A stretch of DNA of 64,000 nucleotides from Candidatus Bathyarchaeota archaeon. GTDB taxonomy: Archaea > Thermoproteota > Bathyarchaeia > Bathyarchaeales > Bathyarchaeaceae. The DNA lies in the NCBI GenBank assembly GCA_030608565.1, contig JAUWDY010000001.1:15457-79456 (forward strand). The letters are read 5' to 3'. Shown here in pieces: positions 48,669 through 63,368 of this stretch (its first letter is position 1; each line of letters starts with the position of its first letter). The position numbers and the translations under genes are program-made. Below the pieces are notes generated by a model. That model made no database searches, was not told the DNA's origin, and saw only the letters and a program-made list of their open reading frames with translations.

Positions 48669-48881
48669 TGGTCGGGCGGGCAGGACTTTCATGAAGTGAA
48701 ACCTTCATTTTGAAATCGCCGAGCTGAGATTAGCCCTGCAGCTCTCCTGCGACAATCCGGTGTCTGCATGTATGCTTGGTAGGCTGGGTGACACCTACCG
48801 TGGGTGGATGTCTACAGCGTCTTCGTCAGCTGGTTTTGGCCAAGCTGGCTCGGAAGCTCTACCAAGCTGAGCTACCGCCCG
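48669..48881 (-). tRNA. tRNA-Tyr(GTA) requiring four putative introns (213-nt gene, 77-nt mature incl. CCA)
   Basis: Hand fold: exons 48881-48851, 48818-48812, 48761-48746, 48714-48708 and 48684-48669. Joined they give CGGGCGG TA GCTC AGCTTGGTA GAGC T TCCGG CTGTAGA CCGGA TTGTC GCAGG TTCAAAA CCTGC CCGCCCG A CCA. It has C1-G72 and A73 as in archaeal tRNA-Tyr. Confidence 0.7.
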
Positions 48882-63292: not shown

Positions 63293-63368
63293 GCCTCGGT
63301 GGCTCAGCTGGTAGAGCGTCAGCCTCGTAAGCTGGTGGTCGGGGGTTCGAATCCCCCCCGAGGCTCCA
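63293..63368 (+). tRNA. tRNA-Thr(CGT), intronless, CCA encoded
   Basis: GCCTCGG TG GCTC AGCTGGTA GAGC G TCAGC CTCGTAA GCTGG TGGTC GGGGG TTCGAAT CCCCC CCGAGGC T CCA. Confidence 0.9.

Follow-up and report, generated by a model that had tools for sequence, protein, structure and literature searches.

Evidence for four bulge-helix-bulge introns in a tRNA-Tyr gene of Bathyarchaeia

Introduction

How can a tRNA gene yield a tRNA if it forms a cloverleaf only after four separate segments have been taken out of it? This question is raised by a 213-nt tRNA-Tyr(GUA) locus on the minus strand (48881-48669) of a 64,000-nt stretch of DNA from a Candidatus Bathyarchaeota archaeon (contig JAUWDY010000001.1). 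We refer to the whole of this stretch as the window and number positions from its first letter. An earlier reading of the locus, made without database searches (the sequence-only reading), proposed that four introns must be removed from it. Here, we find this proposal borne out by splice-site geometry, by recurrence and by comparative data. Exon constraint, covariation, distribution, a promoter-like box and an encoded CCA together argue for a functional gene and against a pseudogene, an artefact or chance. We conclude that the locus is very probably a functional tRNA-Tyr(GUA) gene with four bulge-helix-bulge (BHB) introns that are spliced by proteins, and that it is probably the sole tRNA-Tyr gene of its genome.

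Results

A tRNA-Tyr gene in five exons

Read on the minus strand, the locus runs CGGGCGGTAGCTCAGCTTGGTAGAGCTTCCG / 32 nt / GCTGTAG / 50 nt / ACCGGATTGTCGCAGG / 31 nt / TTCAAA / 23 nt / TCCTGCCCGCCCGACCA, with five exons of 31, 7, 16, 6 and 17 nt and four introns of 32, 50, 31 and 23 nt. Exon 1 (48881-48851) supplies tRNA positions 1-30, comprising the 5' strand of the acceptor stem, the D-arm and anticodon-stem positions 27-30, and is followed by intron 1 (48850-48819) at position 30/31. The second exon (48818-48812) is a 7-nt micro-exon that carries positions 31-37, anticodon GTA included, and it ends at intron 2 (48811-48762), which occupies the canonical 37/38 position. Exon 3 (48761-48746) covers positions 38-53, with the 3' strand of the anticodon stem, the variable loop and the 5' strand of the T-stem; intron 3 (48745-48715) then interrupts the gene at 53/54. 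A 6-nt micro-exon, exon 4 (48714-48709), provides T-loop positions 54-59 and is separated by intron 4 (48708-48686, atgaaggtttcacttcatgaaag), at 59/60, from exon 5 (48685-48669), which holds positions 60-76: U60, the 3' strands of the T-stem and acceptor stem, A73 and the encoded CCA. All five exons are collinear, on one strand and within 213 nt, which rules out a split or circularly permuted tRNA gene.

The sum given in the sequence-only reading (77 nt of exon plus 136 nt of intron) is correct, and the joined 77-nt exons fold into a cloverleaf of -35.6 kcal/mol. The tRNA-Tyr hallmarks that it listed, namely C1-G72, A73, the D-arm GCTCAGCTTGGTAGAGC, the anticodon loop CTGTAGA and the encoded CCA, can all be read at 48881-48669. 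Archaeal and eukaryal tyrosyl-tRNA synthetases recognize an identity set made up of a C1-G72 first pair, the discriminator A73 and the GUA anticodon; the window gene carries this set, both in its sequence and in the drawing produced by ARAGORN. ARAGORN and Rfam were the sole tRNA finders run. ARAGORN, one of the checks suggested at the outset, is silent on the unspliced locus, reports an intron-containing tRNA-Tyr if all introns but that at 37/38 are removed, and reports tRNA-Tyr(gta) on the fully spliced product. Rfam does not report the locus at its gathering threshold or at E<=1.

Upstream of the gene lies an element resembling a B recognition element and TATA box (BRE/TATA), caaag TTAATATAT (48927-48914, minus strand; TTAATATAT at 48922-48914), whose centre is ~37 nt from tRNA position 1 and which would serve as the promoter. 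Orthologues have an equivalent box, cgaaa..cataaat/catatat, at the same distance upstream. A run of five T (48662-48658, minus strand), 6 nt past the CCA, is likely an archaeal oligo-T terminator. The CCA itself is encoded in 14 of the 15 genomes with four introns.

Splice-site geometry at the four junctions

We examined each junction for a canonical BHB, in which two 3-nt bulges surround a 4-bp helix H and cleavage falls after the second bulge nucleotide; flanking helices are named h on the exon side and h' on the intron side (definitions per PMC7714728, PMC6379350). BHB geometry, which the sequence-only reading had left to be checked, is present at all four junctions, canonical at 30/31 and 59/60 and relaxed at 37/38 and 53/54. 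Intron 1 forms a canonical hBHBh' motif with H CTTC/GAAG (4/4 pairs), bulges CGA and ACG, a 2-bp h (A23-U33, G24-C32) and an inner hairpin. Intron 2 has a relaxed hBH/BHL motif: H is CTGT/GCAG (4/4) and h is the anticodon stem, with no h' beside the 5' bulge; the intron has a 5' hairpin at 48811-48791. The motif of intron 3 is likewise relaxed, with H CGCA/GGCG paired at 3/4 (A51·G mismatch), a 6-bp h' (GAGCTG/CAGCTC) and, beyond a U47.U55 mismatch, an outer helix G46-C56, U45-A57, U44-A58 that joins the variable loop to T-loop nt 56-58.

For these three introns we kept the originally proposed boundaries. The fourth intron also stands, but not its boundary: excision of 48707-48685, as first proposed, leaves 1/4 central pairs, whereas a shift of one nucleotide to 48708-48686 gives H TTCA/TGAA (4/4), a 5-bp h' (TGAAG/CTTCA) and the T-stem as h. 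This motif is a canonical hBHBh' after removal of intron 3 and is HBh' only before it. The micro-exon is correspondingly the 6-nt TTCAAA and not the 7-nt TTCAAAA first described, and the shift turns the T-loop into TTCAAAT, identical to that of the neighbouring tRNA-Ala.

Among random junction pairs from the same window, H is paired at 4/4 in 2.1 %, and H at 4/4 together with an h' of at least 5 bp occurs in 0.023 %. The joint chance of the four observed geometries is ~5e-11, and a chance origin is excluded.

Orthologues and the distribution of intron sites

We scanned one genome per species with a 26-mer query from the 5' end of the gene containing two degenerate positions, and matched at least 119 loci, nearly all of them in Candidatus Bathyarchaeia metagenome-assembled genomes (MAGs). 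This places the window in Bathyarchaeia and rejects an origin in Thermoproteales, for which a GC content of 43 % had at first spoken. The matches listed include 105 Bathyarchaeia tRNA-Tyr genes from species-level genomes, which we compared in a BHB-aware spliced alignment and to which the genome counts below refer. Only four insertion sites occur across them. The most common combination is 30/31 with 37/38 (66 genes), followed by all four sites (15 genes, the window gene and those of 14 other genomes), 37/38 alone (14), 30/31 with 37/38 and 59/60 (7), 37/38 with 53/54 and 59/60 (2) and 30/31 with 37/38 and 53/54 (1). No intronless Bathyarchaeia tRNA-Tyr is among the genome matches listed, where the five uninterrupted matches are bacterial tRNAs of poor identity.

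A metagenome scan anchored on the junction of exon 3 and intron 3 contributed a further 41 distinct genes, and 36 of these contain four introns. The pooled genomes and metagenomes yield 145 distinct gene sequences, of which 50 carry four introns and the others one to three at the same four sites; none is intronless. A separate metagenome search for a tRNA-Tyr without the 37/38 intron returned 0 hits in 241 million records. The intact second tRNA-Tyr gene that the sequence-only reading had suggested looking for thus has no uninterrupted representative in the genome or metagenome scans. The four-intron layout is also found in closed MAG chromosomes such as CP070759.1 (L114) and in many Joint Genome Institute (JGI) metagenomes. 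A near-identical copy of the window gene comes from a different assembly (L002) and shows two differences, in introns 1 and 3, both located by eye in hairpin loops.

Splicing in silico turns every one of the 105 genes into a tRNA that ARAGORN calls tRNA-Tyr(gta). The predicted mature tRNA has the same sequence in two-intron and four-intron species, so an assembled transcript would not point to either clade. The splice-site helices are conserved along with the tRNA: H is paired at 4/4 in 89/89 orthologues at 30/31, in 104/105 at 37/38 and in 22/24 at 59/60. At 53/54, H with 3/4 pairs and the A·G mismatch itself is kept in 16/18 orthologues, and an A-U pair takes its place in L026 and L088. The inner helices covary. 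That of intron 1 occurs as 47 distinct 5-bp helices; in intron 3, all five scored h' pairs are 100 % paired, with double changes at 4/5; in intron 4, double changes occur at 5/5 h' pairs, and pairing across the construct as a whole reaches 96.6 % of cells. None of 500 shuffles reached the covariation score of intron 3, and none of 500 that of intron 4. Inner-helix pairing is 86-97 %, compared with 14-54 % when the partners are slid, and because the inner helices are wholly intronic, exon conservation cannot explain it.

Exon 1 is invariant among orthologues, but its positions 1-25 were set by the search pattern. Outside that pattern, exon nt 26-73 are 98.3 % identical among the 15 four-intron genomes, whereas the introns are 62-76 % identical. 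The micro-exon GCTGTAG is invariant in all four-intron orthologues although both introns that flank it vary, and TTCAAA is invariant wherever both of its flanking introns occur.

Nine of the 15 four-intron genes (the window gene, L002, L003, L008, L031, L033, L057, L076 and L106) share an identical intron 4 (atgaaggtttcacttcatgaaag), yet the other introns of these nine, as seen for introns 1 and 2, show only about 60-70 % identity. Such a pattern suggests either strong constraint on intron 4 or its recent spread or gene conversion. An attempt to map intron gains onto a neighbor-joining tree of intron 2 was set aside, as an alignment of ~50 nt holds too little signal to settle whether the four-intron state had a single origin; on that tree, intron 3 takes 14 changes compared with a shuffled mean of 16.8. 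In three species (L076, L088 and L089), the T-stem of the predicted mature tRNA-Tyr contains an A51.C63 mismatch, its 3' strand reading TCCCGC in place of TCCTGC.

An intronic block complementary to the D-loop

Across the class, the 37/38 intron has a common layout, a covarying 5' hairpin followed by a near-invariant block, CAGCCTACCAAGCGYACA, which lies at 48786-48769 of the window (minus strand; core 48782-48774) and is also found in all loci from L002 to L120. The core of this block is reverse-complementary to nt G15-G22 in the D-loop of the same pre-tRNA. Nine contiguous pairs between block and D-loop can be formed in 102 of the 105 genes, compared with ~2 % for shuffled introns. The intron covaries with exon nt 17, having G in 22/23 genes with C at that position and A in 79/82 genes with U; the common substitutions in the block are all pair-preserving transitions, and 99.1 % of cells are paired.

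The block lacks the hallmarks of a C/D or H/ACA guide RNA. No C/D boxes (C/C' RUGAUGA, D/D' CUGA) occur in the distinct intron-2 sequences listed, which rules out a C/D guide, and Rfam reports no small-RNA family at E<=1. An H/ACA guide was also rejected: an ACA trails the block, but the would-be lower stem lacks covariation, and nt 1-4 of the intron covary with the 5' hairpin and not with such a stem. The intron of Haloferax volcanii pre-tRNA-Trp serves as a C/D box guide that targets its own exons, at positions 34 and 39 (for related material, see PMC7994747). The Bathyarchaeia intron resembles it in being a long intron at the canonical position with a conserved stretch complementary to its own exons, here through 9 bp to D-loop nt 15-22, but differs in lacking C/D boxes and any Rfam match and in having the D-loop as its target. 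Pairing of the block with the D-loop together with the intron's own BHB helix would give a knotted topology, with a linker that is often 2 nt long; the block/D-loop pairing is therefore probably an alternative conformer.

Other genes in the window

The genes that adjoin the tRNA-Tyr locus are housekeeping genes (PNP_UDP, DUF373, ATP-grasp_5, FAD oxidase, methyltransferase and TIP49), with no mobile elements among them. Three further tRNA genes lie in the window, two of which, tRNA-Ala(CGC) and tRNA-Thr(CGT), are reported by both ARAGORN and Rfam. The tRNA-Ala(CGC) gene (49036-48948, minus strand) shares its strand with tRNA-Tyr, lies 66 nt further upstream, has its own TATA-like box, cctatatatc, and contains one canonical intron of 14 nt at 37/38, with H TTCG/CGAA (4/4) and an inner mini-hairpin GC-CAA-GC. 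This intron includes a CCAAGC complementary to the D-loop; the mini-hairpin of the BHB explains it, and we did not extend the D-loop-antisense reading to this gene. The tRNA-Thr(CGT) gene is at 63293-63368 on the plus strand.

The third gene is a hidden tRNA-Asn(GTT) (39955-39825, minus strand) with two introns at non-canonical positions, both in canonical hBHBh' motifs, one at 8/9 (39947-39924, 24 nt, H CGCC/GGCG) and one at 30/31 (39900-39871, 30 nt, H CAAC/GTTG, inner helix of 9 bp). The unspliced gene escapes ARAGORN, which calls tRNA-Asn once it is spliced, and Rfam gives it 25.9 bits, below threshold. Its T-loop, TCCGAAT, has an unusual C at position 55. With tRNA-Tyr included, the four tRNA genes of the window contain 0, 1, 2 and 4 introns.

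Discussion

Weighing the alternatives

Could the locus be a decaying tRNA-Tyr pseudogene that has collected insertions, with the real gene elsewhere? The silence of ARAGORN and Rfam, the imperfect motif of intron 3 and a view limited to 64 kb of the genome would all fit such an account. Decay would not, however, leave exons so much more similar across species (98.3 %) than the introns between them (62-76 %), micro-exons of 6 and 7 nt invariant amid variable introns, compensatory changes that preserve the splicing helices, a conserved promoter box and CCA, and a proper tRNA as every in-silico spliced product; nor do the genome matches listed or the metagenome scans contain an uninterrupted Bathyarchaeia tRNA-Tyr that could be the real gene. 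We therefore regard a pseudogene as very unlikely. The number of introns might instead be overstated through wrong boundaries, for example if introns 3 and 4 and the micro-exon between them were one unit, or if the T-loop came from elsewhere. The one-nucleotide error in the first placement of intron 4 and a GCAGG repeat within intron 3, which offers a decoy T-stem strand, lend this idea some colour. Excising 48745-48686 whole, however, loses the T-loop and with it the cloverleaf, and TTCAAA is invariant between two hairpins that vary and covary independently. Orthologues carry either the 53/54 or the 59/60 intron without the other at exactly these sites, so introns 3 and 4 are separate units, and the BHB-aware alignment places the same four sites in 50 genes. 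A smaller true count is accordingly a reading to which we give very little credence.

Two further explanations are less probable still. An artefact of assembly or binning, or chimerism of the contig, is a fair concern for an uncultured lineage, the more so as the exact neighbouring protein was matched in one read-assembly only (Logan SRR14876854), on a contig that stops short of the tRNA genes; with the architecture repeated in dozens of independent assemblies, closed chromosome CP070759.1 and JGI metagenomes included, and with the near-identical L002 copy from a different assembly, we consider it extremely improbable. Group I introns occur in tRNA genes of bacteria (PMC13011429), and a self-splicing intron of group I or II, or a non-BHB element of some other kind, might be envisaged here. 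Insertions of 23-50 nt are far too short for a ribozyme, they match no Rfam intron family even at E<=1, and all four have BHB geometry, which leaves this explanation with next to no probability.

Several points weigh against a functional gene with four BHB introns. A 64-kb view leaves room for a second, divergent tRNA-Tyr elsewhere, the genome scan covering the matches listed, and the 77-nt mature tRNA, the circularized introns and the order of splicing are predictions from sequence. Intron 3 has only 3/4 pairs in H and a U.U mismatch as its first outer pair, intron 2 is without an inner helix, and both would require a broad-specificity endonuclease in the host genome. Finally, nearest-neighbour folding favours no BHB, the canonical ones included: in constrained ensemble energies computed for all 15 intermediates at 37 and 60 °C, the predicted BHBs are all rare, a canonical motif alone having P ~1e-6 at 37 °C. 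Such energies say little about a motif that is held by an enzyme, and they are no support either. Ranking the splicing order by thermodynamics was dropped, as the energies do not discriminate.

A proposed stepwise pathway for splicing

From the observed anatomy, BHB geometry, covariation, exon constraint and distribution, we infer how the gene may be transcribed, which enzymes would process its transcript and in what order they would act. We propose that its own BRE/TATA-like promoter drives a precursor of ~220-230 nt containing the five exons and four introns. The archaeal splicing endonuclease EndA would cut within the two 3-nt bulges of each intron's BHB, and an RtcB-type ligase would seal the exons. 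Relaxed BHB motifs call for a broad-specificity endonuclease (PMC6379350), and because introns 2 and 3 are relaxed, an (αβ)2- or ε2-type EndA is expected. Neither EndA nor RtcB is among the seven open reading frames around the locus, the only ones covered by this Pfam scan.

The motifs compete for the same exon nucleotides. Helices h and H of intron 1 occupy nt 23-28 and 32-33, and H and h of intron 2 occupy nt 27-35 and 39-43; in the same way, the motif of intron 3 occupies nt 44-51 and 56-58, and that of intron 4 nt 49-57 and 61-65. Because the first two motifs have nt 27-33 in common, and the last two nt 49-58, they cannot coexist, and splicing would be stepwise. Every helix needed by introns 1 (30/31) and 3 (53/54) would be available in the primary transcript, and their removal would restore the anticodon stem, the outer helix of intron 2, and the T-stem, that of intron 4. 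Because these outer helices must await the removal of introns 1 and 3, the most likely order is introns 1 and 3 first, then 2 and 4. In this order the 7- and 6-nt micro-exons would never become free oligonucleotides. Such short exons constrain both the endonuclease and the ligase, in that the order of events must keep them unreleased.

Relation to known multi-intron tRNA genes

The number of introns in one archaeal tRNA gene is put at "a maximum of three" in a review of 2014 (PMC4033280), and three is likewise the figure in PMC8450103. The same limit was quoted in the sequence-only reading; it agrees with these reviews but is outdated by Supplementary Data 4 of Valentin-Alvarado et al. 2024 (PMC11291895), which has "intron 4" columns for Asgard tRNA genes. 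That table lists Freyarchaeia tRNA-Arg(TCT) and tRNA-Ile2(CAT) with 4 predicted and 4 observed introns, and Freyarchaeia tRNA-Leu(GAG) and Atabeyarchaeia-2 tRNA-Trp with 3 predicted and 4 observed. The study used tRNAscan-SE 2.0.12 and R2DT and reports non-canonical introns in most tRNA genes of those genomes; its main text speaks only of 'multiple introns', the four-intron cases being confined to the supplementary table. Four introns in one archaeal tRNA gene are therefore not unprecedented, and the Bathyarchaeia tRNA-Tyr equals and does not exceed the highest count on record. The Asgard cases belong to another phylum and to other isoacceptors, with 1-3 introns for Asgard tRNA-Tyr in that table, and the table shows no BHB, covariation or conservation analysis. 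The novelty here lies in the lineage and the isoacceptor, in a four-intron state conserved over many species, and in proof from comparative data.

In the Thermoproteales (Pyrobaculum, Thermofilum, Caldivirga), multi-intron tRNA genes were described by Sugahara et al. 2008 and Fujishima et al. 2010, as summarized in PMC8450103 and PMC4033280, and some of their introns lie so near each other that a motif can form only after the neighbouring intron has gone (PMC8450103). Those genes and the Bathyarchaeia tRNA-Tyr have in common that they carry several short BHB-type introns, both at the canonical position and elsewhere. Unlike the Thermoproteales genes, which are reported with at most three introns, the Bathyarchaeia gene has four, and here the four-intron state is conserved in one orthologous gene across many species. 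Our literature search found no paper on Bathyarchaeia tRNA introns. A parallel for the order of events comes from the red alga Cyanidioschyzon merolae, whose nuclear tRNA-Ile(UAU) is interrupted at 37/38 and within the D-arm and T-loop by three BHB introns, and where reverse-transcription PCR (RT-PCR) showed that the outer introns leave before the 37/38 intron (PMC3728597). This experimental order matches the one proposed for the Bathyarchaeia tRNA-Tyr, with the difference that the alga is a eukaryote with three introns whose order was established by RT-PCR, whereas ours is deduced from interrupted helices.

The three-intron limit for archaeal tRNA genes thus fails, and in Bathyarchaeia, a globally abundant archaeal class with at least 50 distinct four-intron tRNA-Tyr sequences, the four-intron state can be stably inherited across many species. 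Annotation by ARAGORN or Rfam would call tRNA-Tyr and tRNA-Asn missing in these archaea and would skew estimates of completeness and inferences about decoding. The graded series of orthologues, with one, two, three or four introns at four fixed sites, provides material for a study of intron gain and loss.

A more speculative proposal, which we put forward as possible but rather unlikely, joins two of these observations: introns would have accumulated stepwise from one to four, with a candidate fifth in a single metagenome contig (L218), and the antisense element of the ancient 37/38 intron would be a folding device that controls splicing. If so, the element would hold the D-arm open or switch between conformers, and would thereby set which BHB forms and in which order the introns leave. 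This would be an undescribed form of RNA-level control over the splicing of multi-intron tRNAs.

Intron 3 (48745-48715) holds GCTGCAGG, a near-copy of GTCGCAGG in the preceding exon (the 5' strand of the T-stem), which may possibly be a trace of the intron's origin, or else a decoy. In the L218 gene (4754-4988 of its contig, plus strand), the usual four introns are accompanied by 31 nt inserted at D-loop position 15/16, where the BHB is relaxed (H 3/4, h' 4 bp); the spliced product of this gene is a tRNA-Tyr identical to the window tRNA at 73/74 positions. We consider this insertion, seen in a single contig, a candidate fifth intron; it partly resembles the 5' exon and may possibly have arisen by partial duplication.

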